Shown here: in pieces, positions 11,873 through 59,436 of the stretch
Layout of the letters: each line of letters starts with the position of its first letter
Position numbering within the stretch: position 1 is the first letter of the stretch
Source: a virus
Lineage: Duplodnaviria > Caudoviricetes
Reading direction: 5' to 3' (one strand)
DNA: 64,000 nucleotides
Virus record (IMG/VR): IMGVR_UViG_3300035208_003026
Coordinates: 144,981 to 208,980 of that record
Program-made: the position numbers and the translations under genes
The notes under the pieces: generated by a model
Database searches by the model: none
Told to the model about the DNA's origin: nothing
The model's input: the letters and a program-made list of their open reading frames with translations, nothing else

Positions 11873-13252
11873 ATGGGTACTGAATCTAAAACCGAGGTCT
11901 TGCAAAGAGAGGAAATAGTGAACGACATCAACGATAAGCCACAAGTAGATGAAGAAAAATTGGCCAAACTAAAAGCGCGAGCTGCGCAGAAAAGGGCCGA
12001 AGAAGAAGCAGCGCAAGCTGAACCACAGGAGGAAGTGATGCCACCACGTATTGTAGAAGATCGTAAGAAGAGTCTTCGTTTTGGTGTAATTGGCTCTGGA
12101 CAATGTGGTAGTAGAATTTCTGAACAATTTTATGCTCTTGGATATCCAACGGTAGTTATGAATACAGCTCCACAGGATTTGGAAGATATCAAAGTTCCGG
12201 AACAAAATAAGCTTTTGTTAGATTTTGGTCTAGGTGGTGCTGCTAAAGATCTTAGTATTGGGTATGATGCGGCCGATGCATATCGTGCAGCAATTAACCA
12301 ATTGGTTCAGACCAAACTTAGTGATGCTCAAGTTTTTGTATTCTGTACATCTCTTGGGGGTGGTTCTGGCGCTGGTTCAGTTGAAATTATTGTTGACATT
12401 CTTGCACAGATTGGAAAGCCGGTTGTAGTTCTTACTGTTTTGCCTAAGGCTTCAGAAGATTCTCAGCTTAAACACAATGCTTGGCAGACTCTTCATAAGT
12501 TCACTAAGATGTTTAACGAAGGTAAGATCGACAATATTATTACCGTTGATAATGCCAAGATTGAATCTTTGTATTCAGACGTTGGACCATTCAACTTTTT
12601 CAAAGTCTCTAATAAGGCTATTGTTCAACCTATCGATGTGTTCAATACCATGAGTCGTCGTAAGGACGAAGGTCTCAAGGTTCTAGACTCAACTGAGTTC
12701 GGTAAATTGTTTATCGATGGTAAAGGATTTACTGTATATGGCGAGATGTCAGTTGAGGATTACGAAGATGAGATGGCAATTGCCACCGCTATCGTTGAAT
12801 CTCTTAAGGGCAATTTGTTAGCTTCTGGTTTTGATATTCGCCAGGCCAGATACGCTGGTTTCATGTTAGTAGCTCCAGAGAGTGTTTGGAATAAAATTCC
12901 AAGTTCATCTTTGGATTTTGCACAGCATATGATTAATGATGCGTGTGATTCTCCACTTGCTGTTTTTCATGGTGTTTACCGTGAGGATACTGGTGAGGAT
13001 TGTATCAAGGTATACAGCATGTTCTCTGGTCTTGGTTTGCCTGAGGAGCGTATTGATCAGCTCAAGGCTGAAGCGCAAGCAAAGATGGCAAATGCTCAGC
13101 GCAAGGATGAAGACCGCAAGATGACCATGAAGGTTGATGTTGGCGAAGAGACCATGAACAAGGTTGATGAAATTAAGAAGAAGATTCAACAGAAGGCTTC
13201 TTCATTCAACAAGTTGCATGGTGGAGCTATCAAAGATCGTCGGAAGCTATAA
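11873..13252 (+). CDS. Tubulin/FtsZ-family GTPase (phage tubulin)
   Basis: IGSGQCGSRI, GGAAKD, signature LGGGSGAG, VDN; coiled-coil N and C tails; ATG 11873 after AGGA. Confidence 0.9.
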   Translation: MGTESKTEVLQREEIVNDINDKPQVDEEKLAKLKARAAQKRAEEEAAQAEPQEEVMPPRIVEDRKKSLRFGVIGSGQCGSRISEQFYALGYPTVVMNTAPQDLEDIKVPEQNKLLLDFGLGGAAKDLSIGYDAADAYRAAINQLVQTKLSDAQVFVFCTSLGGGSGAGSVEIIVDILAQIGKPVVVLTVLPKASEDSQLKHNAWQTLHKFTKMFNEGKIDNIITVDNAKIESLYSDVGPFNFFKVSNKAIVQPIDVFNTMSRRKDEGLKVLDSTEFGKLFIDGKGFTVYGEMSVEDYEDEMAIATAIVESLKGNLLASGFDIRQARYAGFMLVAPESVWNKIPSSSLDFAQHMINDACDSPLAVFHGVYREDTGEDCIKVYSMFSGLGLPEERIDQLKAEAQAKMANAQRKDEDRKMTMKVDVGEETMNKVDEIKKKIQQKASSFNKLHGGAIKDRRKL

Positions 13253-13806
13253 TGAATGAAAACCTTTATCTGGTAACAAACTTTGTACTAGACAACCTAG
13301 ATGCAAAGGTTCCGGTAGTAGAAGGTTCATGGCATAAAATCACTGAGGACGAAGTCCTTTACAACTTTAGAAAACATAAAGATGTAAAGTGTCTCGTCCT
13401 TAATGGTAATGGTTTGGCCGAAATAAGAACAACCTCATTTACCGGAAAGCTCTCCGTACCTCTTGTAGCTTTGGACTTTGCGAAGACCATGGACGAATTT
13501 GTTTGTTCTGCTTGTATAGTTCAATTTAAAGAAAATTTTAGTTCGTTCAAGCAAGTTAAGCTTGGTGAACTTCAGGATTGGGTTCAGTCTTGTAAAGATG
13601 GAGCGTTTTATGCCAATGAAAAAACAAGGGGTTTCATTACGGCAGAAAATGTTCTCAACGCATCTTTACCAGATGGTGTTATAGTGTACATACCAGATTG
13701 TGTTGGGCTTATTCCTTGTAAGTTTGATAGTGATGGGAAGTTATCGAAGTTTGGGCTGAACATGATGATGGGTTATGCGGTATTTGCAAATGTGGAGGAA
13801 ATATGA
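13252..13806 (+). CDS. Hypothetical protein, possibly a diverged capsid-domain derivative
   Basis: 184 aa, coupled start/stop overlaps; C-terminus weakly resembles huge-phage MCP C-terminus (from memory). Confidence 0.5.
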   Translation: MNENLYLVTNFVLDNLDAKVPVVEGSWHKITEDEVLYNFRKHKDVKCLVLNGNGLAEIRTTSFTGKLSVPLVALDFAKTMDEFVCSACIVQFKENFSSFKQVKLGELQDWVQSCKDGAFYANEKTRGFITAENVLNASLPDGVIVYIPDCVGLIPCKFDSDGKLSKFGLNMMMGYAVFANVEEI

Positions 13807-14297
13807 AATATTCACTAGTTATCAATGCTAAAGGACCAAAACCATCAGATTTTGCCGTATATCTTACGGACGCAAAAGAACATATAGATAAGGATGCTTC
13901 TTGGTTCGCTGTTGGAAGGCTTCAGAGCGTTCATTTTAATGCAAGTTCTGATAACTTCATTCCAAAAGTAAGTGGTAGTTTTGTTGGTGTTTCGATTAGC
14001 AAGTGCGATGAACCAGATCTGAGTGGAGGTTTCAATGTCTTTTATTCAGGTTTTGCTATGATTAATGATGAAAACCAGAGAGCTTTAACTGAATTATATA
14101 TTCGTAAGGGATATGATGTTATCGGTTTAGTTAAGGAAATAGATTTTGATGTTGATGTAAATGGTAAAGCAAAGCTCTATATCGAAACTTGTAATCCGGT
14201 CGAGTTGTATGGAGATGATACAACTCCATGGTATAAAGATATTCAAGATTGGGTAGATCTTAAAGTTATATCTTTCAAAGAGGTATCTAATGGATAA
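13803..14297 (+). CDS. Hypothetical protein
   Basis: GGAGG RBS; internal pseudo-repeat VGRLQSVHFNAS / IGLVKEIDFDVD. Confidence 0.6.
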   Translation: MKYSLVINAKGPKPSDFAVYLTDAKEHIDKDASWFAVGRLQSVHFNASSDNFIPKVSGSFVGVSISKCDEPDLSGGFNVFYSGFAMINDENQRALTELYIRKGYDVIGLVKEIDFDVDVNGKAKLYIETCNPVELYGDDTTPWYKDIQDWVDLKVISFKEVSNG

Positions 14298-14403
14298 GTG
14301 GGCAATTTTGGTTTGGGACGAAGAAGAGTTGACTATGGTTACCGAGTACATTGATGGTATTTGGGGCGCTGCAACTCCAGAAGAAGAAATAGTTTGGCAC
14401 TGA
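14290..14403 (+). CDS. Small acidic hypothetical protein (37 aa)
   Basis: GAGG RBS, ATG 14290, fills the gap between two genes; below ORF-track cutoff. Confidence 0.4.
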   Translation: MDKWAILVWDEEELTMVTEYIDGIWGAATPEEEIVWH

Positions 14404-14412
14404 CGGAGTAGA

Positions 14413-17169
14413 ATGACATCAATTGTCAGATTCGATAACTCATGTAAAATTGTTGATGAAGATGACCTGGAACTATACAAAGCCCTGGACAACGAACTCA
14501 GCTTTCAAATTAAAGGAGCTGAGTTCTCAGCGGCGTATCAAGGTTACATCAATGAGTCAGGAGAATTTGTAACTTGGGACGGTAAGCGGCATTTGCTAAA
14601 TAGTAATGGTAAATTTCCTGTTGGTTTACTTCCCAGAGTTCAGGAGTTTTTTTCTCGAAGAGGAATTTATGTTCCTGTAATCGATCAGAGAACATTAAGA
14701 AGTCCATTATTAGAACTTGATATTTCTGGTAATTTGCAGAAATTAGGAAAGATTCCACGACCATATCAAATTATGGCTGCAGAAACAGCTGTTGGAACAG
14801 ATCGCGGCATTATTCGTATGGCCACGGGCGCTGGAAAGTGCAATTCTATTGATTCATTACATATAACCGAAAATGGATTATTAGATTATAAAGAACTTCT
14901 TGAAGATATTTCTTTACCAGAAGGCTGTTGTATTCCGTATGATATAAAAGTTTCTACATCTAAAGTTTTTGGTGAGACTGATTCGTCTTCTATGATTTAT
15001 AGAGATGGATATGGGAAATCATTAAAGATAACAACTTCTTATGGTTACAATTTAACAGCAACTTATAATCATAAGATTCAAGTAATAGATAAAGATGGAA
15101 ATTTTGTTTGGAAGAAATTTCTGGATTTATCATGTGATGATTATGCTCTTATTTCATATAATAATATGATGTTTGGCAATGATCAAATGTCTAAAGATGA
15201 AGCTTATTGGCTTGGTTTGTTGTTTGGAGACGGTTCTTTAACATTAAAACATCAGGTAAGTTTCACAAATATGGATGAACATATTCTGAATTTTGTAAAA
15301 TTATTTTTGGATAATAATAATATTCTTTATAAAGAATATAATACAAAAAGTAAAGCTAAAAATATAAATATTTATAGTTTAAAATATAGAGATTATTTAT
15401 ATAATATGGGTTTTGGTTATGAAAAAAGTATACATAAAACTGTTCCGAAGCATATACGAAAATTAAATGAAAAATCTTTAGCTATGTTTTTGCGCGGAAT
15501 TTACGAAACAGATGGATGGGTTGAAAATAAAGGGTCTAAAATATGTATTTGTTTAGGTTTATCTAATAAAAAAGCAATAGATCAAATTCATTTGCTTTTA
15601 GCAAATTTTGGAATTATAGCATCAAGACGTTTAAAGAAAACAACACATCAAGATAGTCATATATTAACAATTTATAGAGATTATATTGATGTATTTAATG
15701 ATAGGATTGGGTTTGATCCAAATGGTAAAAAGTTTAAAAGAATACAACAATTAAAAAATTGTAAACATAATTCAAATCAAAAAATTTCAAATATAAAATA
15801 TAGAATAAAAAGTATAATTAACAGTGTTCCTTTTGAGAAAAAATTATGTCCTATAAAATGGGAAACTGTAAAATCATGGCTAGGAAAATGTGCATGGAGG
15901 GAACCTTCAAAAGAAAATCTTATATGTTTACTGTCTTTTATAATTAATAGATATAAATCATCTGATGCCAAGTATTTATTATTACAGATAACTGATGTTT
16001 TTTGCGATAAAATAAAAAAAATAGAAGAAACATATGTAGATAATTATGATTTTGTTATACCAAAAACTCATAGTTTTATATCTCAGGGTTTTATAAATCA
16101 TAATACACTCGTATCTGCTTTGATAGCTTCAAAGATTGGTAAAAAGGCATTGATATTAGTAATTGGTAAAGATCTTTTATACCAGACAAATAATTTTTTT
16201 ACCAAAGTCTTTGGACAGGAAATTGGTATTATTGGAGATGGTAAGTGTGAGATTAGGGATATTAATGTTGCTACTATCTGGAGTGTTGGTCAGGCACTTG
16301 GAATTAAGCAAAATGCAACAATTGATGATGATAATGATTCTGAAAAGAAAGTTGATTCTTCTAAATTCAAAAATATTAGACAAATGTTACTTGATTCTGA
16401 TTTGGTCCTGATCGATGAATGCCATCTTGCAGCTTGCGATACTGTTCAGGCAATATCTCGCAACATCAAGGGTGAATATGTTTACGGTATGTCTGCAAGT
16501 CCTTGGCGTGATGATGGTGCTGATATGCTTATCGAGGCGTTTTTGGGCCGAAAGATTGTGGATATTGGTGCTCGTAGTTTGATCGATCAGGGATATCTTG
16601 TGGAACCGAACATCAGATTTCTAGCTCCTAAACCTTACAAGTTCAAGAGTGGTCAGTATCAAAGTATCTACTCCAAGTATATCGTAGAAAATGAGCAACG
16701 AAACGGAATGGTAATCAAGGGAGCGCAGAAGTTGGTCGAGCAAGGCTTCGTCCCGCTGGTGCTGTTCCACACGATTAAGCATGGCGATACTCTGTTCAAG
16801 GAGCTGAAGAAGAGTATTCCAACCGCCTTACTGAGCGGAAAGGATAACTCAAATGTTCGAGAAAAGATCAAGACAGAATTGGAAGATGGTAAGTTGAAGT
16901 GTTTAGTTGCTTCAAAGATCTTTGACCTAGGAATTGATTTACCAATTCTATCTGGACTTGTTATTGCTGGTGGAGGAAAATCTTCTGTTCGAGCCCTTCA
17001 AAGGATAGGTCGAGTAATTAGACCATATCCTGGTAAAAATACAGCAGCTGTAATCGATTTTAGTGACCAAGCTCCTTATTTAAGTGATCATGCAGATATT
17101 CGTCGTCAAATCTATGAATCGGAGTTTAATGTTCAATGGCCACAAGAAAAAAGCAACAAGGAAAGTTAA
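14413..17169 (+). CDS. Superfamily 2 (UvsW/XPB-like) helicase with intein
   Basis: RPYQ, ATGAGK|T, LIDECH, GMSASP, GIDLP, LQRIGRVIR. Confidence 0.92.
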   Translation: MTSIVRFDNSCKIVDEDDLELYKALDNELSFQIKGAEFSAAYQGYINESGEFVTWDGKRHLLNSNGKFPVGLLPRVQEFFSRRGIYVPVIDQRTLRSPLLELDISGNLQKLGKIPRPYQIMAAETAVGTDRGIIRMATGAGKCNSIDSLHITENGLLDYKELLEDISLPEGCCIPYDIKVSTSKVFGETDSSSMIYRDGYGKSLKITTSYGYNLTATYNHKIQVIDKDGNFVWKKFLDLSCDDYALISYNNMMFGNDQMSKDEAYWLGLLFGDGSLTLKHQVSFTNMDEHILNFVKLFLDNNNILYKEYNTKSKAKNINIYSLKYRDYLYNMGFGYEKSIHKTVPKHIRKLNEKSLAMFLRGIYETDGWVENKGSKICICLGLSNKKAIDQIHLLLANFGIIASRRLKKTTHQDSHILTIYRDYIDVFNDRIGFDPNGKKFKRIQQLKNCKHNSNQKISNIKYRIKSIINSVPFEKKLCPIKWETVKSWLGKCAWREPSKENLICLLSFIINRYKSSDAKYLLLQITDVFCDKIKKIEETYVDNYDFVIPKTHSFISQGFINHNTLVSALIASKIGKKALILVIGKDLLYQTNNFFTKVFGQEIGIIGDGKCEIRDINVATIWSVGQALGIKQNATIDDDNDSEKKVDSSKFKNIRQMLLDSDLVLIDECHLAACDTVQAISRNIKGEYVYGMSASPWRDDGADMLIEAFLGRKIVDIGARSLIDQGYLVEPNIRFLAPKPYKFKSGQYQSIYSKYIVENEQRNGMVIKGAQKLVEQGFVPLVLFHTIKHGDTLFKELKKSIPTALLSGKDNSNVREKIKTELEDGKLKCLVASKIFDLGIDLPILSGLVIAGGGKSSVRALQRIGRVIRPYPGKNTAAVIDFSDQAPYLSDHADIRRQIYESEFNVQWPQEKSNKES
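14839..16104 (+). mobile_element. Intein (422 aa) with LAGLIDADG endonuclease in helicase Walker A
   Basis: GK|CNSIDS...TYNH...LGLLFGDG...FLRGIYETDG...GFINHN|T; much more AT-rich than flanks. Confidence 0.95.
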
Positions 17170-17759
17170 GCGGTCTTACTGTTGACGGTACGCCCAATGC
17201 GTATTGGCGCAGGTTTAAAGAAAGACTTGAGGCTTATGAAGAGGTCCCAGTTAAAGACTGGAAAGAAGAGCAAATGCTCGGTCATATCATTAAGCGATAC
17301 AAAGATGTAATGGAAGTTGACTTTGCTCTTTCGTATTCTGGTCCTCCTACAAAATGTAAAGAGATTTATTGTCTTCGAAGAACAATCTTAGCTCTTGGTG
17401 CTGATGATGGTCCAACTGTCAAGCAGTATATTGATTGGGTTTTTGATACAAAAATCATACCTCAGAAGATGACAATCTCAAGTATTGCGTTCTTCTTTAC
17501 CACAAATCTAGTTCTAACATTCAAGAAAGATATGCGTAAGCAGAATCGTATATCTAGAGCAACGGAATTACCAAAAGAATATTCTGATATAGCTATTGCT
17601 TTTGAATTAGATGTAAAAACTTATGGAGATTTAGCCTTTGCTAAGGTTGCTCTGGAAGATGATCCAAACAATGAGGATCTTAGTGTTTACTCTAATCTTT
17701 TTGGTAAATTGAGAGAGATTGGGTTTGATGATATTGTTCTAGGATCGATAGAGGGATAA
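17136..17759 (+). CDS. Hypothetical protein in replication block
   Basis: 207 aa between helicase and DnaC-like loader; no motif recognised. Confidence 0.6.
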   Translation: MATRKKQQGKLSGLTVDGTPNAYWRRFKERLEAYEEVPVKDWKEEQMLGHIIKRYKDVMEVDFALSYSGPPTKCKEIYCLRRTILALGADDGPTVKQYIDWVFDTKIIPQKMTISSIAFFFTTNLVLTFKKDMRKQNRISRATELPKEYSDIAIAFELDVKTYGDLAFAKVALEDDPNNEDLSVYSNLFGKLREIGFDDIVLGSIEG

Positions 17760-18181
17760 TGGAAATATCGATTGGCTCAATGATCAAGATATTCTGTCTA
17801 GGTGGTGTTATGGAAGCTGGAAAGCTGATCGAACGCACTAAAGAGCAAATGGTGCTTGAGCTGATCGATAAATCCTACACGATTATTCAGAATCCTGATC
17901 AGAACATTATCGCAATTAAGATCTCTGCTTACGAAAGAAAGTCGAGCACCGAGGATGAGGTGTTTGTTGACGTTGAGCTAAAACCCGAACGCTATGCTCG
18001 CAAAGAGGATTTGCGAGCAGCTAGCCTTGCTGAGTTGCACAAACTTAAAGCAAATGAAGAGCGTAAAAGGGCTAGAGAAAAGCTAACGAGTTATCAATTG
18101 ACAGCACAACCAGAGGTGGCTTTTGGACTTCCAGACTTCAGCAAATCCGTTTCTAAATATCCCAAGAAAAAAACTCGATGA
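17759..18181 (+). CDS. Hypothetical protein
   Basis: 140 aa, GAGG RBS, coupled to upstream stop. Confidence 0.6.
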   Translation: MEISIGSMIKIFCLGGVMEAGKLIERTKEQMVLELIDKSYTIIQNPDQNIIAIKISAYERKSSTEDEVFVDVELKPERYARKEDLRAASLAELHKLKANEERKRAREKLTSYQLTAQPEVAFGLPDFSKSVSKYPKKKTR

Positions 18182-18848
18182 TGCTCTAAGTGACATCAAA
18201 GATCATTACTCTGACCAGAATGGCCTTCTTACAAAAGAAGGCGCTATTCTTACTGAGGTTTTCTATGGGTATTACAACTCCAATATTCCTGTGGATTATT
18301 GGTGGAGAGATATGTCCGATTTCATCGGACCACCTATCCTTAAGAATTTCTATAATTCTTATGTAGAAGATATTAAAACAGCTTACAAAGATGGTAAGCG
18401 TGCCCGTTTGGGAGGCTCACATGGTGTAGGTAAAAGTATGACATGTGCGTGTATTCTCAAACGTGTTGTAGAAACTCAAAAGTATAGTACTTTGTATATT
18501 AATCTTACAGATATAATTCATGTACTCTTAACTTCATCGCACGAAGATAAAATCTATGCCAGACAAAATCTTTTAAGTGTAGATTTTTTGGTAATAGATG
18601 AATTTGATGAGAGATTTATGGGATCAGAAAATGCTGCTGATTTATTTGGTCGTATTTTGGAACCTATTTTAAGAACAAGAATTCAAAATAGAATGCCTTT
18701 GTTAATATGTACGAATACAGCAAAAATTGAAGATTCTTTTTCTGGACCTTTAAAAGCAAGTATAGAAAGCTTATTCAACTTAATAAAGCTTGTACCTGTT
18801 ATTGGTGGTAAAGATGTTCGTGCAATGATTAAAAATGGTGAGTTATGA
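18123..18848 (+). CDS. DnaC/IstB-like AAA+ helicase loader
   Basis: Walker A GSHGVGKS, Walker B FLVIDE, R..NRMPLLICTN; adjacent to dnaB. Confidence 0.85.
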   Translation: MDFQTSANPFLNIPRKKLDDALSDIKDHYSDQNGLLTKEGAILTEVFYGYYNSNIPVDYWWRDMSDFIGPPILKNFYNSYVEDIKTAYKDGKRARLGGSHGVGKSMTCACILKRVVETQKYSTLYINLTDIIHVLLTSSHEDKIYARQNLLSVDFLVIDEFDERFMGSENAADLFGRILEPILRTRIQNRMPLLICTNTAKIEDSFSGPLKASIESLFNLIKLVPVIGGKDVRAMIKNGEL

Positions 18849-20302
18849 TGGAAGAACTCGATCTCAAAGTCCTTAAAGGTATCCTTACTGATAAAGTAAA
18901 TGCCTTAACATTTGCTCATAGATATGATCACACTTTATTCGATGAGGATTCTGAGCGTTTTGCTAAGCTTGTAATTGATTACATCAAGCATTTCCGTACG
19001 CCGCCCACAAAGCGTACCCTTATTGATCGGCATAAGAACAATTCCCACATTACAGACATTATTGAAGGCGCTTGGGATGAAGTGGATGCTGTTGAATCCA
19101 ATGCATACGAATTCCAGTATGATCTTGGAGAGTTAAAGAAGCGATATCAGCAACGTGCTGTGGAGATAATCCGTGAACGTGCGGCAACTGAGGATCCTGA
19201 TTCTCCAGAGAATCCAGATGAGTACTTTAACAAGTTATCTCTTGAGATATCTCGCGTTACTTCTCTTGATATGGAGAGAACTCACACACAAATGCCTGTT
19301 GGGGATTATGTGGATGAGTTCCAGGAGGGCTATGATTCTAGACGCCAAAGTCCAGAAGAATCCCCTGAGATTAAGACTGGGTATTCCATGATTGATGCTG
19401 TCACTGGTGGGGTATCCCCTGGTGAACTCATTATGATAGGCGCAGAAACAAATGGGGGTAAGTCTATGATGCTTAATAACATGGGTAAACAAATTTGGAT
19501 GCAGGGAAATACTCTAGATACTGAAGGCAATTTCCAGCGTGGGTATAACATATTATATTTTTCATTAGAGATGCCATATCAGGATTGTTTTATTAGATTC
19601 TTGGCATCCCTAGCCAATGTTCCTCAAAGATCTTTGCAGAAGTCTCTTCTTACCAGAGAAGAGGAAAAAAGAGTTCAACAAGCTTATGATTTTATAAAGA
19701 GATATCAGGAAGCCGGGTATTATTTTGACATTGTAGACGTTCCTCGAAATCTTACTATCGAGGAAGTGGAGCTAAGGTATCACGATGCCATGTTACGTTA
19801 TCGCCCAGAAGTAGTCATTGTGGATTACATGGGTTTGATGCATAGCAAGGCACTTGCAAAAGAGCAAGACTGGTTGAAGCTTGGTGGGATTGCATCATCA
19901 CTTCACGAGTTTGCTAGAGCTTATGATTGTGTAGTTATTACAGCTGCTCAGCTTACGGACCTTAAGAGGAATGCTGGTTCTTATAGTTCGCAAGAAGATG
20001 GTCGTCAAGTTGGTGTACATAGATGGGGACGTTCAAGTTTGATTATGCACAACGTCAATCTAGGTATACAGATTGAAACAAGACCAAATGAGAGATCATT
20101 CCCAGATTTAAAGATTCATGTTGTAAAGAACAGAAAAGGACCATTGGGTCAAGGAAATCTCGTAAAGAATTTTGCCAATGCATCACTAGTTGATGTTCCT
20201 TTTGATCAGAGAGAAATACCCGGAGATGTATCTTCAGATATCCCAAACTTGATTAAAGCTATTCAAGATGCCAAAAATGCCAAGGCAAGCGATTCTAAAT
20301 GA
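18845..20302 (+). CDS. dnaB: Replicative DnaB-like helicase
   Basis: IKTGYSMID, GAETNGGKS, FSLEM, VIVDYMGLM, TAAQL, KNRKGP. Confidence 0.92.
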   Translation: MMEELDLKVLKGILTDKVNALTFAHRYDHTLFDEDSERFAKLVIDYIKHFRTPPTKRTLIDRHKNNSHITDIIEGAWDEVDAVESNAYEFQYDLGELKKRYQQRAVEIIRERAATEDPDSPENPDEYFNKLSLEISRVTSLDMERTHTQMPVGDYVDEFQEGYDSRRQSPEESPEIKTGYSMIDAVTGGVSPGELIMIGAETNGGKSMMLNNMGKQIWMQGNTLDTEGNFQRGYNILYFSLEMPYQDCFIRFLASLANVPQRSLQKSLLTREEEKRVQQAYDFIKRYQEAGYYFDIVDVPRNLTIEEVELRYHDAMLRYRPEVVIVDYMGLMHSKALAKEQDWLKLGGIASSLHEFARAYDCVVITAAQLTDLKRNAGSYSSQEDGRQVGVHRWGRSSLIMHNVNLGIQIETRPNERSFPDLKIHVVKNRKGPLGQGNLVKNFANASLVDVPFDQREIPGDVSSDIPNLIKAIQDAKNAKASDSK

Positions 20303-20475
20303 ATACACCAGATACTATAGCTAGAGCAGTAAGAATTGAGATAGATCCTCTTACTGGTGATGTATATTTGGTATTTAAGGTTATTGATGAGGCGTTTAAA
20401 CAAAATGTTCGAGAAAACTGGGAGCAGGATATTGAAGTAAAGGTTCTTGGAAGAGACCTTGTAAAACGGAGTTAA
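20299..20475 (+). CDS. Small hypothetical protein (58 aa)
   Basis: Manual ORF MNTPDTIARAVRIEIDPLTGDVYLVFK...; ATGA overlap with dnaB stop, ends 1 nt before next ATG. Confidence 0.65.
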   Translation: MNTPDTIARAVRIEIDPLTGDVYLVFKVIDEAFKQNVRENWEQDIEVKVLGRDLVKRS

Positions 20476-20476
20476 T

Positions 20477-21404: not shown

Positions 21405-21415
21405 GGAAATGAAAC

Positions 21416-24400
21416 ATGGCGGATCAAAAGTTTACTTTCAAAGAAGCACACGAGATTGCACTTCAGTATTTTCGCGGAGGAGAAATCTCCGCATCTGTGT
21501 ATCTGAATAAATACGCAATGAAGGACAACGATGCAAACATCGTTGAACCAACTCCAGACTACATGCATAGAAGGCTTGCTGGAGAATTTGCTAGAATAGA
21601 CTCAGAGAAGTATGGTCTAAACTATCAAGAACGATATGATGTTTACTTTTCCGCCATGAAAGACTTCGGCCGTATCGTTCCGCAAGGATCGGTCATGGCT
21701 GCAGTTGGTAATCCATATCAAGTAATGTCTGCGTCTAACTGTGTTGTAGAAGCATCTCCTGAAGATTCTATTTCTGGAATCTTCAGAACTGCTCACAATT
21801 TAGCTCAGTTGTATAAGAGACGTTGTGTTGCAGAGGGATCTAAAGTTGTTACAAAAGAGCATGGACCGATTAATATCGAAAATGTTCTTCCTGGTATGCA
21901 TATTCTATCTTTTGATATTGATGAACAAAAGACGGTTTATAACAAGGTCTTGGACAAATTTGAGTCTAATGTTAATGAAGATGATAGAATTATCGTAAGA
22001 TATTCAAATGGTACAGAGCTAAGAACATCCAAGAAACATCCAATTCTTGAGTTTGGCGAGCAAGGTTTCGGTTACACTGAAGCTGGTAACATTAAAGCAG
22101 GAAGTATCAATGTTCGACCAGAAAATATCAATCTAACTGATTTGAATACTGGAGATTGGGATATTAACGCCACAGACGCACACGATCTTGCATGGTTTGT
22201 TGGTGCTCATATTGGTGATGGGTCTGCTGATTATGTTGTTACTGGTGATGATCGTGGTCGATATGATAGGATTCGTTTTAGAATCTCAGGTGACAATGAA
22301 GAGGTTGTGGAACAGTACAGGAACATTCATAATCATCTGACTACTAATTCAGCAAATTACCATAAGTCATATCGTACAGATTATCAGACGACATGTTGGG
22401 AGTTTTCATCAGCTGTAAAGGCAAATGAGGATATTCTCAATGAGTTGATAGGTAATCAGGTTGGGTCTAAGACGTATTCTGCGTTTGTTCCTAACTCGAT
22501 TGATTCTGACTTTAAAATGTGGTCATTCATAGCTGGTCTTATTGATACAGATGGAACAGTTAAACAAGATGGGCAGCAGATTGTTATTGGCATCTGTGCC
22601 AGGAAGGTGATCGATCAGGTGGCTGTATTTTTACAGTCCAAGGGAATTAGTACACATCTGATTGTTCGTGACGATGTTCGCGATAATGAACATACCATTT
22701 ACCAATTGTGTATTCATTATGATATGAATCTATGGGATGGTTTAGCGAACCGCATGGCTCATGATGAAAAACGAAATGCTCTTCGTGTTTACTTGTATGA
22801 GAATATGACTAAGCAGCATTCGTTGCGAAAGCCAATTAATCAGAGTGAATATGAACACATTCTTAAACATTATGATTGTCTTACAAAAGACTGGAAAAAT
22901 CCTAATCATAAACTTTTAGCAGCGAACATCTATTACATGAAAAAGGCAGATGTTCGTGGAGTTGGTAAAACGTTTTTGAATCAGCTTGTTGATTTTGGAG
23001 TCTTTTCTAAGGATGAGGCTGATTCTATAGTTAGCAGAGTATCTGTAATTGAGGTTGTTCAGGATACCGAGTCAAAAAAGTATTATGACATTGAAGTTGA
23101 GAATACAAACAATTTCTATTGTGGTAATGGTGGGTTGGTTTTAATTCATAACTGCGGTGTTGGTTTTGATCTTTCAAGCCTACGTCCAGAAGGTTCGAGT
23201 GTCAATAATGCCGCTCGTACAACTACTGGTGCCTGGAGTTTTGCAGATTTATATTCTACTGTAACTCGTTTGGTTGGTCAAGCGGGTCGTCGTGGAGCCT
23301 TGATGCTTACAATGGATGTTCATCATCCTGATGTGCTCAAGTTTGCTACAATGAAGCATGACCTAACCAAGGTTACTGGGGCAAATATTTCTTTGCGTTT
23401 GAGTGATGAATTCCTCAAGGCAGTTGATGAGGGTACTGATTATGAGGTTCGTTGGCCTGTTAACGATCCTAATCCAAAGATTCGTAAACGAGTGGATGCT
23501 CGCAAGGTTTGGGAAGTTATTGTAGAGTCTGCTACGAAGAGTGCAGAGCCTGGTCTTATTCTTTGGACTAATGCTGTTCGAACTCTTCCTGCTCATTGCT
23601 ATCCTCAATTCGTTTCTGTTTCTACAAACCCATGTTCCGAGATTATTCTTTCGGCTTCTGATAGCTGCCGATTGATTTCAATGAACTTGACTGCTTATAT
23701 TCGTAATGCTTTTGAAAGAGATGCATTCTTCGACTTTGAAGCATTTAAGAAAGATGCTGCTATCGCAGCTCAAATGGGTGACAATCTTGTTGACCTAGAA
23801 ATTGAGCTGATTGATAGAATCATCAATACCATTAAATCTACAGCAACAACGCTTGAAGATTCAGAGTGGGAAATTGAGATCTGGAAGAAGCTACGTAAAG
23901 CTGGTCATGATGGTCGTCGTACTGGTCTAGGAACTCATGGTCTTGCAGATGCTCTCGCACAGCTTCGGCTTCGATATGATTCGGATGATGCAAATGCAAT
24001 GGTAGATCAAATCTATCGCCACTTCAAGGAATCCATTTATCAAGCTTCTGCTGACTTAGCAAAGATTCGTGGACCATTCCCTGCGTTTGATCCTAAATAT
24101 GAAGTTGGTCATCCTTTCATCTCTGCATTGCCTGAGAGCACTCAGCGAGAAATGATGGAGAGTGGTCGTCGAAATATTTCGATGCTAACTCAAGCACCTA
24201 CTGGTTCGGTGTCAATCATCTCAAAGGTTGGCGAGTTTGATCTATTCAATGTGTCATCTGGTGTTGAGCCTGTCTTCCGCGTTGCTTATACAAGACGTAA
24301 GAAGGTTAATCCAGATGATGAGGGATCGAGAGTAGATTTCAGAGATGCCAACGGGGATTGCTGGCAAGAATATAGAATCTTCTCTGGTAATGCAAAGGCT

Positions 24401-25420
24401 TATCTTGATAAGTTTGGTCTTGATGAGGATACGAAGCTTCCAGAGTTTTTTGTCAGTTCTGATGAGATTAACTGGACAAAGCGTATTCGTATTCAGGCAA
24501 CTGAACAGAGACATATCGATCACTCCATTTCAAGTACCATTAACCTTCCGGCTGGTACGCCTAACTCTGTTGTTGCTGAGTTGTATTTAGAAGCTTGGAA
24601 ACAGGGTTTGAAGGGTGTTACTGTTTATGTTGATGGTTCAAGAGATGGTGTGCTTGTTACTGGAGAAAAGCAAGCCCTGAAGTGTGACAATTATCTGATC
24701 GGACATTACAATCAGGTATTTGATAAGGATGGTTTTGAACTCTGGGATGCTTTTGATCAGAAATTCCAGGAGATTTCTAAGAAGCTCAGGGACATCGCAG
24801 AGGCCAAGAGAAATGCTCAGGCTAACTTCGATTGGAATGCTGCTGAAGCTGTGGAGTTTCCAAAAATGCGAAAGCAAGATGTTTATGATGTTTTTGCACC
24901 AATCTTCAGTGATCCTGAGCGTGCTTACGCTCCTAAACGTCCAGCAGTCTTAGAATCTAAAACTCATAAGATCAGGATTGATTTTGGAAATGGTGAACCA
25001 AGGAATGCTTATGTTACAGTTTCCTTCTTCCCCAACTCCAAGCGACCATACGAGATTCTTGTTCAGGCTCCTAACTTTGGGCTTGGAGAAAAGGATCTTC
25101 AAATCCTGGAGTTGACTGCTCGAACAACATCCATGAATCTAAGACATGGAGTGCCGATTCCATTCATTTGTGAGCAGCTTGATAAGATTGGCGGACAGTA
25201 TCTGTTCTCTCTTCCAACCAATATTGCAAGAGTTCTTCGCCATTATGCTGGTGAAGAGGAGCTTGTGGAAGATGAGGGTGCTGATATTGAAGAGTTTGAC
25301 CGTAAGAATGCGGTATCTCTTGAGAAATGTCCATCATGTGGCCAGCGTACTTATAGAAGAACTGGTGCTGCTTGTGGGCATTGCGAAAATCCGAAGTGTA
25401 CTTATAGTAGTTGCGGATGA
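21416..25420 (+). CDS. nrdJ: Class II (B12-dependent) ribonucleotide reductase with intein and C-terminal TSCPD/Zn region
   Basis: SASNCVV, GRRGALM, TNPCSEI, APTGSVS, GLKGVTVYVDGSR, terminal CPSCG...CGHC...CTYSSCG. Confidence 0.92.
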   Translation: MADQKFTFKEAHEIALQYFRGGEISASVYLNKYAMKDNDANIVEPTPDYMHRRLAGEFARIDSEKYGLNYQERYDVYFSAMKDFGRIVPQGSVMAAVGNPYQVMSASNCVVEASPEDSISGIFRTAHNLAQLYKRRCVAEGSKVVTKEHGPINIENVLPGMHILSFDIDEQKTVYNKVLDKFESNVNEDDRIIVRYSNGTELRTSKKHPILEFGEQGFGYTEAGNIKAGSINVRPENINLTDLNTGDWDINATDAHDLAWFVGAHIGDGSADYVVTGDDRGRYDRIRFRISGDNEEVVEQYRNIHNHLTTNSANYHKSYRTDYQTTCWEFSSAVKANEDILNELIGNQVGSKTYSAFVPNSIDSDFKMWSFIAGLIDTDGTVKQDGQQIVIGICARKVIDQVAVFLQSKGISTHLIVRDDVRDNEHTIYQLCIHYDMNLWDGLANRMAHDEKRNALRVYLYENMTKQHSLRKPINQSEYEHILKHYDCLTKDWKNPNHKLLAANIYYMKKADVRGVGKTFLNQLVDFGVFSKDEADSIVSRVSVIEVVQDTESKKYYDIEVENTNNFYCGNGGLVLIHNCGVGFDLSSLRPEGSSVNNAARTTTGAWSFADLYSTVTRLVGQAGRRGALMLTMDVHHPDVLKFATMKHDLTKVTGANISLRLSDEFLKAVDEGTDYEVRWPVNDPNPKIRKRVDARKVWEVIVESATKSAEPGLILWTNAVRTLPAHCYPQFVSVSTNPCSEIILSASDSCRLISMNLTAYIRNAFERDAFFDFEAFKKDAAIAAQMGDNLVDLEIELIDRIINTIKSTATTLEDSEWEIEIWKKLRKAGHDGRRTGLGTHGLADALAQLRLRYDSDDANAMVDQIYRHFKESIYQASADLAKIRGPFPAFDPKYEVGHPFISALPESTQREMMESGRRNISMLTQAPTGSVSIISKVGEFDLFNVSSGVEPVFRVAYTRRKKVNPDDEGSRVDFRDANGDCWQEYRIFSGNAKAYLDKFGLDEDTKLPEFFVSSDEINWTKRIRIQATEQRHIDHSISSTINLPAGTPNSVVAELYLEAWKQGLKGVTVYVDGSRDGVLVTGEKQALKCDNYLIGHYNQVFDKDGFELWDAFDQKFQEISKKLRDIAEAKRNAQANFDWNAAEAVEFPKMRKQDVYDVFAPIFSDPERAYAPKRPAVLESKTHKIRIDFGNGEPRNAYVTVSFFPNSKRPYEILVQAPNFGLGEKDLQILELTARTTSMNLRHGVPIPFICEQLDKIGGQYLFSLPTNIARVLRHYAGEEELVEDEGADIEEFDRKNAVSLEKCPSCGQRTYRRTGAACGHCENPKCTYSSCG
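21824..23152 (+). mobile_element. Intein (443 aa) with LAGLIDADG endonuclease in nrdJ
   Basis: KRR|CVAEGSKV...SKKH...VGAHIGDG...FIAGLIDTDG...YYDIEVENTNNFY...LIHN|CGVG. Confidence 0.95.
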
Positions 25421-26137: not shown

Positions 26138-26890
26138 ATGAAAATAACAGACCTTGCAGCATTAGTGCAAGTCCGCAACCATGTTTTGACAGTCATTAAC
26201 GATAAATCTGTTACCAACAGAGATGATTTCAAGCCTCTTAATGAGGCAAGGATGAAGTTGGATAAGAAGTTTGTTGAGATTGTTAAAACACTAGATGTGG
26301 ATTCGATTTTTCCTAACGAACTTCTTCTTGTGAAGGTTAGTGGAAATCCAACATCTAAAGAACTTGAAACTTGGAGAGATCTTTTCGAAGCGTCTCGTAA
26401 CGATCCTGATTTCAAGATCTTTACAAACGATGGTGTTTCTATTGTTCAACTTTCTATTGATCCAAAGTCTGAAGTAAGAGTTTGTCCAGCAATTGAGCCT
26501 AGAAGCATTGAGGTTTCCCCCAATATTTCAATTGCTAAGAAAGTACAGCTTAATCTTCCTTTTCAAACCCATGAAAAACCAGCTGATCCAACATTAAGCA
26601 TTGCAGCTGATGTTTTGACAGAGGTTGCTAATGGTGAAATTAAGAAGCTTGAAGCAAATTTAGCTAAGCTTAAAGAGCAGAACGTTACAATTGCTCCCGC
26701 GGTATTGGCAGAGGCTGCAAAACCGATTCAGGCTCCTGAAGAGGAAAAGTTGGCGGTTGTTGAGAAAGTTAGAAAGACAAAACTAACAGAAGCATCGCAA
26801 GATCCTGATATTGCAGCAGCTATTGCTCGTCAAAAGGAAGAGTTGAAGATTCAGGGTCGTTCGAATAAGAAAGTTAAGAAGGATGATTAA
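26138..26890 (+). CDS. Hypothetical protein containing a portal-protein-like segment (aa ~61-105)
   Basis: LLLVKVSGNPTSKELETWRDLFEASRNDPDFKIFTNDGVSI resembles a huge-phage portal clip region (recalled, not searched); low-complexity C-terminus. Confidence 0.65.
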   Translation: MKITDLAALVQVRNHVLTVINDKSVTNRDDFKPLNEARMKLDKKFVEIVKTLDVDSIFPNELLLVKVSGNPTSKELETWRDLFEASRNDPDFKIFTNDGVSIVQLSIDPKSEVRVCPAIEPRSIEVSPNISIAKKVQLNLPFQTHEKPADPTLSIAADVLTEVANGEIKKLEANLAKLKEQNVTIAPAVLAEAAKPIQAPEEEKLAVVEKVRKTKLTEASQDPDIAAAIARQKEELKIQGRSNKKVKKDD

Positions 26891-27686
26891 TAAAGGTGAG
26901 CTTATTCCGTTAAAGGATAAGCTCTGGTTAACTAAACAAAAACACGCCGGTCGTGTCGTTGCGAAATCCCATCAAGAGATTTTTGGGATGATCAAGGGCA
27001 TGGCCAGTGGCCTTTCTCTTAAGGTATTAGGAGATGTTGTAGAAGAAATCATTCGAAAGAATGATTGTATACCAACGTTTCTTAACTATCAAGGGTTTCC
27101 AAGTCCTATTTGTGCATCTTTGAATAATGAAATTGTTCATGGGTTTGCTCGTGACATTAAATTGCAAGATGGAGATGTTCTAAAGGTTGATATTGGTGCA
27201 ACTTTTGAAGGTGCAATTGCGGATTGTGCATTTACTTATGTTTTTGGTAAGTTGAAGAATCCAGAGATTGGGAGAATGCTTGTTTCATGTCAGCAAGCTC
27301 TGTATGATGCTATAGATGTTGTAAAGCCCGGAAAACAAATAGGCGTAATCGGAAAAGCTATTTGGGAAAGATCAAAAACTGATGGCTTTGGTGTAATTAC
27401 TACCTATGGTGGACATGGTATTAGTTATAATAAGCTACATGATTCACCATTTATCTCTAATAAATCAAGTGAGAATCTAGGAATTACAATTCAGCCAGGA
27501 ATGTCATTTGCAATAGAACCAATGTTTGTACTTGGTACCAATACTAATACCAAAACTCTAAAGGATAAATGGACAGTGATTACTAAAGATATAGGATGTC
27601 ATTATGAACACTCTATTACCCTTGATGATGATGGAAACTTACATATCATTACAGATCATGGTCTAAGTGCAAAGAATTTTCTGTAA
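26883..27686 (+). CDS. map: Methionine aminopeptidase type I
   Basis: FLNYQGFP, VHG, VDIG, DCAFT, GHGI, IEPM, HYEH metal ligands. Confidence 0.95.
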   Translation: MINKGELIPLKDKLWLTKQKHAGRVVAKSHQEIFGMIKGMASGLSLKVLGDVVEEIIRKNDCIPTFLNYQGFPSPICASLNNEIVHGFARDIKLQDGDVLKVDIGATFEGAIADCAFTYVFGKLKNPEIGRMLVSCQQALYDAIDVVKPGKQIGVIGKAIWERSKTDGFGVITTYGGHGISYNKLHDSPFISNKSSENLGITIQPGMSFAIEPMFVLGTNTNTKTLKDKWTVITKDIGCHYEHSITLDDDGNLHIITDHGLSAKNFL

Positions 27687-47161: not shown

Positions 47162-47182
47162 CGAATTTCCTAACATATACCT

Positions 47183-47455: not shown

Positions 47456-47464
47456 TAACTACAA

Positions 47465-47530: not shown

Positions 47531-47565
47531 AAATCAGCTGGCTTATTGTCTTGGTATGAAAAGAA

Positions 47566-48246
47566 ATGTCAATAGAGTATTATATTCTTGATACGGAAAC
47601 AACGGGGCTCATGACTGACGTTCATGAGATTAACCAAATCTCAATAATGAGAGTTTCAGATGAAGAGCAATTATCACTGCAAATTGCTGTTGCACACCCT
47701 AACATTTATAATCCGCAAGCTCTTGAGGTTCAAGGAATTACACCCAAAGACTTGCGCGAGGGTGTACCTATTTCAGAGGCTGTTGAAGCCATCAACCTTT
47801 TCATGGAAGAAGACGGTAAAACGAAGGCACATCGGTGCATCGTAGCACATAACGCTCCGTTTGACAGGAAATTCGTACACCGTGCGTGGGAAAGGTTGGA
47901 CATTGAGTTCCCAGCTGATTTATGGATGTGTACCCAGTCATTTGGAAAACGATATGTGAAGAAGTTTGGCGGTGACAAAATTGCAAAGGCGCAATCAGAC
48001 GCGGGTATTGATGTCAAGCCAGATAAAGGTGGCAAACTCAAACCTAAGTTTGGATTAAATAACCTTATGATTGGTATTGGATTGGAAGCTAAAGTAGGTG
48101 CTCACTCCGCTGATGTAGATGTGAAGAACACATTAACATTATATAATTGGTTGATGAATTCTAAGACGGAACATATTTCTTTAATTGAACGTATTCCTCA
48201 TCGCGATCCTCCAAAAACCCAAGAATTGGATCTTAATGATTTTTGA
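47566..48246 (+). CDS. DEDDh 3'-5' exonuclease
   Basis: LDTETTG, AHNAPFD, AHSADVD. Confidence 0.9.
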   Translation: MSIEYYILDTETTGLMTDVHEINQISIMRVSDEEQLSLQIAVAHPNIYNPQALEVQGITPKDLREGVPISEAVEAINLFMEEDGKTKAHRCIVAHNAPFDRKFVHRAWERLDIEFPADLWMCTQSFGKRYVKKFGGDKIAKAQSDAGIDVKPDKGGKLKPKFGLNNLMIGIGLEAKVGAHSADVDVKNTLTLYNWLMNSKTEHISLIERIPHRDPPKTQELDLNDF

Positions 48247-48261
48247 TAATGTTAGGTTATT

Positions 48262-48510
48262 ATGAATAAAGTTGATGATATTAATAATCAGATTTCAAAT
48301 CTTTACAAAGAGTTGAAACAAATTCAGAAAGAATGTTCTCATCCTAAATCATGTCTTGAAAAAGAGGCAAAATCAAATTCCGGAAACTATGATCCGAGTG
48401 CTGATCGTTATTGGTATGATTTTCATTGTACTCTGTGTGATAAACGATGGTCCGAAGATCAAGAAGAGTATAATAAAAAAGAACGTATGCGGAGATCTGG
48501 TCTTGAATAA
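48262..48510 (+). CDS. Small zinc-binding phage protein
   Basis: CSH...SGNYDPSADRYW...CTLCDKRW. Confidence 0.7.
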   Translation: MNKVDDINNQISNLYKELKQIQKECSHPKSCLEKEAKSNSGNYDPSADRYWYDFHCTLCDKRWSEDQEEYNKKERMRRSGLE

Positions 48511-48560
48511 AACTCTTGATACTACGCATATCTAGAAATCTAAAGTTAAGGAAAATTCAG

Positions 48561-48695
48561 ATGTCAAATGTTCTGTTGGATAAATTGGTAAGTGAAGCTC
48601 AACGGTCAATTTCTGAAGAAGAAACCATAAAGAGAAAAGAGCGTAATAAGCGAAAGTCCCAGAGACAAGCTTTGCGCGGAAAGAAAAAGAAGTAA
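48561..48695 (+). CDS. Small basic protein (44 aa)
   Basis: AAGGA RBS, manual ORF, K/R-rich C-terminus. Confidence 0.5.
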   Translation: MSNVLLDKLVSEAQRSISEEETIKRKERNKRKSQRQALRGKKKK

Positions 48696-48697
48696 CC

Positions 48698-58138: not shown

Positions 58139-58332
58139 TTGAACAAGCAAGAGGAAATGGATTTTTTACTGTCGCTGTTGACACGGAGAATGGTAAATTC
58201 GTAAACATCTTATGCCAGCTATCTGGAAAGATGAGAACCAATAACATTAAAGTTGTCAGTGGTGACAAGGTTGATGTTGAACTCGATCCTTACGACATGC
58301 AAAAGGGTCGTATTATTTATAGGAAACGATAA
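58102..58332 (+). CDS. infA: Translation initiation factor IF-1
   Basis: GIVEQ..GNGFFTV...LSGKMRTNNIKVVSGDKVDVELDPYD..KGRIIYR. Confidence 0.93.
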   Translation: MPSDDKPKFTGIVEQARGNGFFTVAVDTENGKFVNILCQLSGKMRTNNIKVVSGDKVDVELDPYDMQKGRIIYRKR

Positions 58333-58505
58333 TGAAAATTAAAAGAGAAGTTGAGATTGAAACTGTTCAAGCTTTAAAGCTTGAAGATGGTAAGTTATTT
58401 ATCATTACAAAACACTTAAGTAATGGAGATGTTGTATCGTTTAGTAACACATCTGTTCAATTAGAAAGTGTTCTTAAACTTCTAAAAGATGAAGGGATTA
58501 TTTAA
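58332..58505 (+). CDS. Small hypothetical protein (57 aa)
   Basis: Manual ORF; TAATG overlaps at both ends. Confidence 0.6.
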   Translation: MKIKREVEIETVQALKLEDGKLFIITKHLSNGDVVSFSNTSVQLESVLKLLKDEGII

Positions 58506-59002
58506 TGAAGCAGCCAAGTGATCATGCACCTAAGGGTCTATTAAAATACACTACGGGAGACGCAACACTACCAAACGGTAGCTCCCTGCGTTACATCCTA
58601 CAGATTGTTAACGATGCTGGTAAGTATGGGGCTGGTTTTAGTGGAGCTTTAAGTGCTCGTTGGCCCAAGGTTGAAACCGAATACAGAGCTTGGTGGCGCG
58701 CACGATATGGCAAGCTGAGCCTTGGTGATATTCAGGTTATTCAGGTTCTTAGCGATCTTTGTGTTATCAACATGGTTGCTCAGCACGATGTTGTATCCAA
58801 GGATAATCCAAAGCCTATTGACTATAAAGCTCTTCAGATGTGTTTAGCGAAAGCTGGTGTCGAAGTCTCGCAGTACAATGCTAGCATTCATATTCCGCGT
58901 ATTGGTTGCGGATCTCAAGGTTCCTGGGACGATATTGAACCCCTGATTGATCAGGAACTTCTCAAACGTGGTATCAATGTAACTGTTTATGATCAGGAAT
59001 AA
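58505..59002 (+). CDS. Macrodomain ADP-ribosylhydrolase (TARG1/DarG-like)
   Basis: GDAT, VNDAGKYGAGF, INMVAQ, HIPRIGCG, W..IE..I. Confidence 0.85.
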   Translation: MKQPSDHAPKGLLKYTTGDATLPNGSSLRYILQIVNDAGKYGAGFSGALSARWPKVETEYRAWWRARYGKLSLGDIQVIQVLSDLCVINMVAQHDVVSKDNPKPIDYKALQMCLAKAGVEVSQYNASIHIPRIGCGSQGSWDDIEPLIDQELLKRGINVTVYDQE

Positions 59003-59010
59003 GGCATTAA

Positions 59011-59331
59011 GTGGGTTTTAGAAAGTTTGCGGAGATAGCTGGATTCGACATCTATAGAAATCTTACCAAGAAAGAAGTTAAGCTTTTCCGTAAGTTTCTA
59101 AAGAAGAGGCTTTGTACTCATGGGTCTTGGGCTCAACCTTGGTTTTCTGAGGCTCAGCGTCTAAACCGTAAAGCTAGATACACTACAATCTCACAGATTG
59201 AACGTATTCAGTTTTTACATTCCTTATCAAAGAATTTACAGCCATGGCAATTTCAGCTGAGCGCGCTTCTCGTGCACTTTGTCCTCGACGAACCTAGTCA
59301 CTGTGGTCCTTACCCAAGAGGGTCAATCTAG
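59011..59331 (+). CDS. Hypothetical basic protein
   Basis: 106 aa, GTG start. Confidence 0.5.
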   Translation: MGFRKFAEIAGFDIYRNLTKKEVKLFRKFLKKRLCTHGSWAQPWFSEAQRLNRKARYTTISQIERIQFLHSLSKNLQPWQFQLSALLVHFVLDEPSHCGPYPRGSI

Positions 59332-59334
59332 CCT

Positions 59335-59436
59335 ATGAGAGATTATCAAAGCATTGCAAGGCGTTTGTTTCAGATTGATTCCTTGCCATCTGGGGCTGAA
59401 CCGGTTTACTGCACCGAGATAGATGTAAATGTATGA
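59335..59436 (+). CDS. 33-aa peptide resembling a major-capsid N-proximal segment
   Basis: MRDYQSIARRLFQIDSLPSGAEPVYCTEIDVNV*; GAGG upstream; ATGA overlap with next gene; absent from ORF track. Confidence 0.6.
   Translation: MRDYQSIARRLFQIDSLPSGAEPVYCTEIDVNV

Follow-up and report, generated by a model that had tools for sequence, protein, structure and literature searches.

Chimeric accessory genes with exapted portal and major capsid protein modules in a phage-G-like huge phage

The DNA analysed here (the window) comprises the final 64 kb, bases 144981-208980, of a single 208,980-bp contig (38% G+C), the IMG/VR virus record IMGVR_UViG_3300035208_003026 (Duplodnaviria; Caudoviricetes), which encodes a tubulin as well as many inteins and homing endonucleases. 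An original prediction made from the letters of the window alone held that three accessory open reading frames (ORFs) far from any head module carry short segments resembling the phage portal protein and the major capsid protein (MCP). As judged by sequence comparison, the three loci are chimeric accessory genes that each combine an unrelated domain with a conserved piece of one of the phage's own head proteins, copied at the level of the protein. The carrier genes, the pieces within them and the genes immediately downstream are as follows; lengths are in amino acids (aa) or nucleotides (nt), and positions are those of the window unless given as contig positions.

26138..26890, + strand: gene of the carrier P0001, 250 aa, with an N-terminal helical domain, a portal-like module, a disordered linker and a basic helical tail
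26300..26461, + strand: portal-derived beta-alpha-beta module (P0001 residues 55-108), homologous to the spliced portal
26883..27686, + strand: methionine aminopeptidase (M24; PF00557, E 5.7e-34)
48698..49216, + strand: gene of the carrier P0002, 172 aa, with an N-terminal half like the MCP C-terminus and a Trp/Cys-rich C-terminal half without a family match
48701..48946, + strand: MCP-derived segment (P0002 residues 2-83), with core residues 26-73 at 48773-48916
49219..50811, + strand: Ro60-like vWA protein (PF25045, E 6.4e-11), starting 2 nt 3' of P0002
59011..59331, + strand: 106-aa ORF, the N-terminal domain of a gene that is whole in a relative (P0049, 121 aa), ending at an in-frame TAG at 59329-59331
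59335..59436, + strand: 33-aa ORF like the MCP N-arm and first strand, with its own ATG and AAGAGGG 12 nt upstream
59433..61328, + strand: NAD-dependent sugar epimerase/dehydratase with a LAGLIDADG intein homologous to portal intein 2

Both source genes lie upstream of the window, 65-125 kb from the pieces, at these contig positions.

52280-56503: portal, 1407 aa with two inteins; PHROG portal profiles match the N-terminal part
77755-77985: MCP exon 1, matching phrog_2522 positions 10-69
78138-79055: LAGLIDADG endonuclease within the MCP gene
79149-79934: MCP exon 2, matching phrog_2522 positions 71-317

In the portal, intein 1 occupies residues 338-730 (Cys...Asn, with Ser at +1) and intein 2 residues 770-1153 (with Cys at +1). 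These boundaries are backed by a portal orthologue with an intein at site 1 only, by the intein-less portal frames of relatives (594-649 aa) and by the homology between portal intein 2 and the epimerase intein in the window. An intervening sequence of ~1.17 kb interrupts the MCP gene (contig 77755-79934) after codon 76, and sub-threshold Rfam group I intron matches (27.3 bits, E 1.4e-4) flank the endonuclease ORF within it on both sides. The joined MCP of 336 aa could be aligned over its entire length with orthologues of 336-339 aa whose genes lack the intron. This arrangement shows that a group I intron interrupts the MCP gene and that two inteins interrupt the portal. The MCP genes of the relatives G003 and G013 were apparently split at the same point, and that of G018 at ~residue 95-100. 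Interruption extends to other genes: besides the two inteins of the portal, the large terminase contains at least one (both genes within contig 48244-56503), the sugar epimerase (59433-61328) has one, and nrdJ (window 21416-25420) encodes 1334 aa as compared with 891 aa in a relative and is probably interrupted too.

The resident MCP is closely homologous to gp27 of Bacillus phage G (PDB 6WKK; E 3e-113) and is encoded on more than 470 IMG/VR stretches, the best 80 being 78-95% identical to it. The source is therefore a phage-G-like huge phage of an uncultured clade. Megablast with 11.8 kb of its sequence gave no match. Since relatives with the same MCP reach 480 kb, and relatives of similar length to the contig were scored as ~45-50% complete, the contig may represent a partial genome.

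The portal piece is carried by P0001, whose gene shares its last 8 nt with the beginning of the aminopeptidase gene and is translationally coupled to it. The resemblance to portal proteins proposed for 26318-26452 proved to be true homology to the phage's own portal over a slightly wider interval (26300-26461). Once the inteins had been removed, residues 55-108 of P0001 aligned with portal sequence to either side of the intein-2 site (22/48 identical), the portal counterpart being approximately residues 741-769 plus 1154-1175 in the intein-containing numbering. When a 20-member profile of the P0001 family was searched against 1,057 contig ORFs, the portal was matched at 63.9 bits (E 1.6e-19), with profile positions 55-108 corresponding to residues 344-396 of the spliced portal. 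Only positions 55-108 aligned, so P0001 is not a full-length portal with the wing, stem, clip and crown of phrog_16240. P0001 has 41 homologues, which are 35-97% identical over the full length and lie on contigs of up to 446 kb. The best-conserved parts of this family are the N-terminal 50 residues and the portal-like module, and the near-invariant residues K66, P71, L76, W79, R80, F83, E84, D89 and F92-F95 are those common to the portal. The gene order nrdJ, two small ORFs, P0001 and methionine aminopeptidase is kept in a 79%-identical relative. Comparison with this orthologue also gave a synonymous divergence (dS) of 0.23 for the portal module versus 0.92 for the rest of the gene; the 4-fold difference may be due to constraint on the nucleotide sequence, to gene conversion or, with just 54 codons, to noise.

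Other searches with P0001 were negative. P0001 itself had no PHROG or Pfam match and no close relative in cultured phages, and a sequence search of solved structures with the P0001 profile and the portal C-extein returned chance-level matches only. The AlphaFold2 (AF2) model of P0001 had a predicted local distance difference test (pLDDT) score of 57, and ESM Atlas structure searches of P0001 and P0002 gave no usable match. A GroES label on one member of the P0001 family was not reproduced in any family search on P0001.

The second carrier, P0002, contains a piece of the MCP C-terminus. As with the portal piece, the capsid resemblance noticed at 48782-48922 reflects true homology to the phage's own MCP and extends further, over 48701-48946. 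Residues 2-83 of P0002 correspond to residues 171-249 of the MCP exon-2 product, or approximately 246-324 of the 336-aa spliced MCP, which are the last beta-strands of the HK97 fold. Identity to the MCP was 24/43 over the core (E 1.5e-14) and 31/70 when the whole ORF was compared (E 4.6e-13). P0002 also matched phrog_2522 (E 2.7e-9, profile positions 254-301 of 318), the NCBIfam HK97 capsid model (E 3.4e-7) and phage G gp27 (42.6% identity, E 1e-7). It is not a complete HK97 MCP (phrog_2522 / NF042927), as it covered positions 216-266 of 280 with 29.5 bits versus a cut-off of 80. Four relatives of P0002 were found (55-83% identity), and a P0002 homologue lies directly upstream of the Ro60-like vWA gene in both of the relative contigs that were inspected (P0046 and P0044), as in the window. 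An intein (Hint) remnant following the capsid-like part of P0002 was considered and rejected, because no Pfam, PHROG or NCBIfam match was found outside residues 23-73 and because the sequence beyond residue 71 continues to match both the MCP C-terminus and gp27 as far as residue 83. A complex prediction for the MCP and P0002, run without controls, scored 0.00 and is evidence neither way.

The third piece, at 59335-59436, was likewise borne out as a homologue of the MCP (17/29 identical, E 1.3e-7). The 33-aa ORF corresponds to residues 5-33 of the exon-2 product, with ~29 residues covered, and its stop codon overlaps the epimerase start (ATGA); the intein-less orthologue of this epimerase has 311 aa (L018). 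The genes before the 33-aa ORF encode a macro-domain protein and the ORF homologous to P0049. In the relative, the 33-aa piece is the C-terminus of the single 121-aa protein P0049, whose N-terminal domain is homologous to the 106-aa ORF and whose capsid-like part crosses the exon 1/exon 2 junction (...MPVRRSLDYQRIAR...). In the window the two parts share a reading frame, with ~19 inserted codons between them, the last of which is the TAG. This premature stop suggests that the third member is probably decaying in this genome. No other homologue of the third gene was found in 5.8 billion proteins, so that the gene is known in two genomes only. Read-through of the TAG by a phage suppressor tRNA was rejected, as no tRNA genes were found on the 208,980-bp contig. 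A degenerate intron or endonuclease 5' of the 33-aa ORF was also rejected, since there was no similarity to the intron region of the capsid gene. The macro-domain-like gene that precedes the carrier (58505-59002) yielded no relatives in a search for related loci.

Divergence from the source genes and selection within the pieces were estimated. At the protein level the pieces are 45-59% identical to their sources. DNA identity of the portal module to its source gene was 61%; in BLASTN the C-terminal piece matched the MCP gene over only 92 nt (67%) and the N-arm piece over only 27 nt. With DNA identity of only ~61-67%, the likeness is kept at the protein level and the copies are old, which rules out a recent duplication or a homing-site copy made at the DNA level. 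Ratios of nonsynonymous to synonymous divergence (dN/dS) were determined by the Nei-Gojobori method over 34-58 codons per segment. Values were 0.30-0.42 for the capsid-like segment of P0002 (three pairs), 0.37 for the portal module of P0001 and 0.26 for the 33-aa piece versus its relative (34 codons, with dS saturated), as compared with 0.13-0.26 for the rest of each gene. Taken together, the substitution patterns identify the pieces as old, diverged copies under purifying selection rather than recent duplications or random debris, and we regard them as exapted structural-protein modules that have been maintained. The earlier claim that the carriers are maintained genes is supported for P0001, with its 41 members and conserved synteny, and for P0002, with its four relatives and Ro60-vWA neighbour, the segment dN/dS being 0.3-0.4. 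The claim fails for the 33-aa ORF, which is the tail of a gene with a premature TAG and not a clean stand-alone gene.

The portal module is not confined to P0001. When P0001 residues 52-112 were compared with 1.84 billion representative proteins, 66 proteins were found to carry the module: 8 members of the P0001 family, 47 small proteins (42-161 aa), 5 proteins of ~210-260 aa, a 976-aa protein with a single copy and one portal, with two spurious repeat proteins among the remaining large matches. Most of the 47 small proteins (E 5.5e-13 to 9e-4) contain the motif twice (LVKVG, PT, DLE, WR, FE, DPDFKIFTH) and frequently end in ...IVAVE. P0001 belongs to this portal-module family, with a single copy plus extra domains. 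The small proteins matched a single PHROG, that of the portal (positions 287-342 of 643), and none of Pfam, PHROGs and NCBIfam contains a family devoted to them; a two-repeat protein had no match among 50,697 cultured-phage records. The AF2 model of a two-repeat member (pLDDT 80) had the topology beta-alpha-(alpha)-beta / beta-alpha-beta, and its second repeat could be superposed on 12 solved portals, each time over the equivalent stretch, with Z-scores of 3.5-5.4, for example ~234-293 of G20c and P74-26, 188-243 of the HK97-family portal 3KDR, and the HFTV1 portal at 2.3 Å over 47 residues. Predicted portals also stood at the top of the ESM Atlas list for the two-repeat protein. Given the published domain boundaries of portals and the modest Z-scores, the matched stretch is presumably the stem helix with the preceding (wing) strand and the first clip strand. 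The 66 carriers, the 47 small proteins among them, the single-copy 976-aa protein, the portal-only PHROG match and the structural superposition together establish the module as an autonomous unit, and the family of one- or two-copy portal-module proteins is one that has not been described so far. The module of P0001 has 'A..DPDF' like the small proteins, whereas the portal has 'SQYDKDF'; judging from this motif, the P0001 module is a member of the exapted module family and not a direct copy of the resident portal.

Two further observations concern these proteins. The C-terminal ...IVAVE of many module proteins has a counterpart in the ...VTIVE of a capsid 3' stub (L141 1477-1743), and we take such a hydrophobic-x-Glu C-terminus to resemble residues P3-P1 at the cleavage sites of T4-type prohead proteases. 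A 111-aa two-repeat ORF on a 7.3-kb IMG/VR contig (L010 5346-6129) lies directly 3' of a macro-domain gene, and in the window the gene with the capsid N-arm piece likewise follows a macro-domain-like gene.

The original prediction had added a weaker fourth case, which we do not count as part of the set.

13252..13806, + strand: 184-aa ORF following the tubulin gene

Its best match to the MCP had an E value of 0.49 and it had none to the portal, nor was there a family match in Pfam, PHROGs, NCBIfam or PADLOC. When all ORFs of the contig were compared with one another by BLASTP, the MCP and P0002 gave the only local match of a structural protein in a small unrelated ORF. As the sole such pair on the contig, it argues that the fragments are not scattered at random. 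Other accessory genes of the window encode a tubulin/TubZ-like protein (11840-13252), the Ro60-like vWA protein (49219-50811) and a zinc-ribbon-bactofilin fusion (53832-54659).

Head-protein pieces in accessory genes recur in other huge phages. An unrelated 436-kb IMG/VR phage (G001; 50% G+C, MCP 31% identical) encodes at least 35 small paralogues, which share a C-terminal zinc ribbon that ends in VMES and are hypervariable at the N-terminus. Of these, six begin with different pieces of that phage's own MCP (residues 16-58, 26-67, 30-72, 93-122, 127-147 and 225-259), and a seventh ORF, outside the paralogue family, matched residues 168-202 of the MCP exon-2 product of the window phage. The MCP was the sole protein matched more than once among 188 large proteins of G001, and the zinc-ribbon carrier domain had no Pfam or PHROG match. 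Examples of the paralogues are:

L026, 752-1036
L032, 9308-10201
L023, 8356-8568

Among 17 genomes related to the window phage, at least 5 contain capsid-derived ORFs far from the MCP gene. Two of these ORFs are 'half-MCPs' (163 and 214 aa), another kind, present in two genomes, is an MCP in miniature that includes a zinc ribbon, and in a further ORF 28 aa of the MCP C-terminus are fused to a GT2-like enzyme. In a sixth genome a diverged 3' stub follows the MCP gene directly, and extra portal modules were present in only 2 of the 17. These data show that the three loci belong to a broader, undescribed phenomenon in huge phages. Carriers often stand beside, or are fused to, sugar-nucleotide or glycosyltransferase genes (a GT92 cluster, the GT2 fusion and an RmlD-like gene), as in the following contexts.

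L148, 5001-6142
L142, 1507-2298
Window, 52206-61328: cluster of GT8, phosphatase and epimerase genes

This proximity could be due to chance in accessory regions, there being only about six contexts.

We tentatively favour a role of the carriers as interface mimics, which we consider the most likely of the explanations, at somewhat less than an even chance. The copied piece would let its carrier occupy the surface that normally receives that piece, or compete for the partner. For the portal module the partner could be the large terminase, the head-completion adaptor or a neighbouring portal subunit, and for the capsid pieces a neighbouring capsid subunit, the scaffold or a capsid-modifying enzyme; the carrier might then tether or regulate something at the assembling head. 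Interface mimicry is the most economical reading because the carriers keep the residues that are also conserved in the portal and MCP, where these pieces, strand and helix elements, pack against other chains. Several points weigh against it. The fragments have diverged to 45-59% identity while the MCP of the clade is nearly invariant, so the fragments are not under all of the constraints that act on the MCP. The duplicated beta-alpha-beta module could, as modelled, be a ferredoxin-like fold with a function unrelated to the portal. To our knowledge, the aminopeptidase, Ro60-vWA and epimerase neighbours have no role in the head, and the third gene is present in two genomes only and is interrupted here. 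There is precedent for a small protein that binds the phage packaging motor, for example Gpi of PLE (PMC11417361).

Four other explanations were weighed against interface mimicry. The pieces may have been captured once as folding units (a half-ferredoxin, a beta-hairpin) and reused without mimicry, for example as cofactors of the downstream enzymes, which would fit the compact ferredoxin-like domain modelled for the two-repeat proteins, the tight coupling of carriers to the aminopeptidase, Ro60-vWA and epimerase genes (and to GT92 and an RmlD-like gene in other contigs) and the much faster divergence of the fragments than of the resident MCP. We consider such reuse unlikely, since the invariant residues of the carriers are the invariant residues of the portal and MCP, and since one carrier family of the 436-kb phage samples the MCP alone six times, at different positions, which would hardly be expected if just any beta-rich piece could serve. 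Portal and MCP are also the phage proteins best known as triggers of bacterial immunity, and the pieces might, as the original prediction proposed, act as decoys that bind portal or capsid sensors (Avs4-, RAZR-, CapRel- or Lit-like) without activating them, titrating the sensors before the full-length triggers appear. We know of no phage decoy that consists of portal or MCP pieces. A decoy role is compatible with everything observed here: the copied parts of the two best-known triggers are conserved and form surfaces, the carriers are among non-structural and probably earlier genes, repeated independent capture of capsid pieces on different carriers would suit an arms race, and RAZR senses portal rings (PMC13017515). 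A decoy role is nonetheless unlikely. A simple decoy would not need the large conserved N-terminal domain and tail of the 41-member family, and a fragment of a trigger may activate a sensor as easily as block it. P0001, P0002, P0049 and two of the module proteins had no match in PADLOC, which holds models of defence and not of anti-defence systems, and no PADLOC or anti-defence family match links the proteins to a sensor.

By-products of mobile elements would arise if breaks made by homing endonucleases led to ectopic capture of flanking coding sequence, leaving functionless relics. The genome is full of inteins and homing endonucleases, the portal piece is centred on the intein-2 site (where a relative's portal is also split), the third-segment family extends across the point at which the group I intron interrupts the capsid gene, and the third gene has a premature stop. 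The coincidence with insertion sites is confounded, because inteins and introns target the most conserved motifs anyway. None of the three loci adjoins an endonuclease, the pieces are only ~61-67% identical in DNA to their source genes, segment dN/dS is 0.26-0.42 and the portal module is conserved throughout a 41-member family. We therefore think it very unlikely that the pieces are mere relics; such events may account for their origin but not for their retention. The least probable explanation is a weapon against co-infecting relatives, in which the fragments would act on competing phages by capping or poisoning the assembly of their portal or capsid, or by blocking their terminase. Satellite-encoded inhibitors of assembly and packaging provide a precedent (PMC11417361), and the fragments do differ from the resident proteins, but with an MCP that is 78-95% identical in a clade of more than 470 contigs self-poisoning would be hard to avoid, and no immunity determinant is evident. 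A more general proposal, that phage-G-like huge phages keep 'trigger or interface mimics' serving as sensor decoys or as competitive blockers of the terminase or of capsid assembly, is one that we regard as unlikely.

Portal and MCP are both the conserved parts read by bacterial immunity and the surfaces that organise head assembly and packaging. The 250-aa family, the two-repeat proteins of 110-125 aa and the zinc-ribbon/capsid-peptide fusions are easily cloned candidates for mimicry, which could be used in studies of phage assembly, packaging control and immune evasion. The portal-module proteins in addition constitute a newly defined family without a model of its own in Pfam, PHROGs or NCBIfam. 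A literature search, which was not exhaustive, turned up no account of accessory genes that contain portal or capsid fragments.

The module shares with the portals of phage-G-like huge phages (phrog_16240; Portal_Mu-type fold) the motif LVK(V/I)G..PT..DLE.WR..FE...D.DFKIFTH. In contrast to these portals it has ~54 of ~630 extein residues and either stands within unrelated sequence or occurs twice in a small ferredoxin-like protein. It lacks the wing, crown and tunnel loop and thus could not form a portal ring as such. Similarly, the two capsid fragments copy the N-arm/first strand and the C-terminal strands of phage G gp27 (6WKK) and keep the family-invariant residues, but are 30-80 aa long and fused to other domains. 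Without the E-loop, spine helix and A-domain they would be unable to build capsomers. Like the gene stubs associated with homing endonucleases, the pieces are short parts of essential genes, conserved in protein and diverged in DNA, in a genome rich in homing elements, and two of them span an intein or intron insertion point. Unlike such stubs, they lie 65-125 kb from the source without an adjacent endonuclease, are contained within conserved multi-domain genes and are not always gene termini; their neighbours are nrdJ and map, RNase T and the Ro60-vWA gene, and the macro-domain and epimerase genes, which do not place them among gene stubs. PLE Gpi, which binds TerL, and the capsid-redirecting proteins of satellites are also small accessory proteins that may act on head assembly or the packaging motor, although they are not copies of portal or capsid segments. 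In concept, the carriers resemble the integrated decoys of plant nucleotide-binding leucine-rich repeat (NLR) proteins and viral subviral decoy particles, in which part of a sensed protein is displayed outside its native context.

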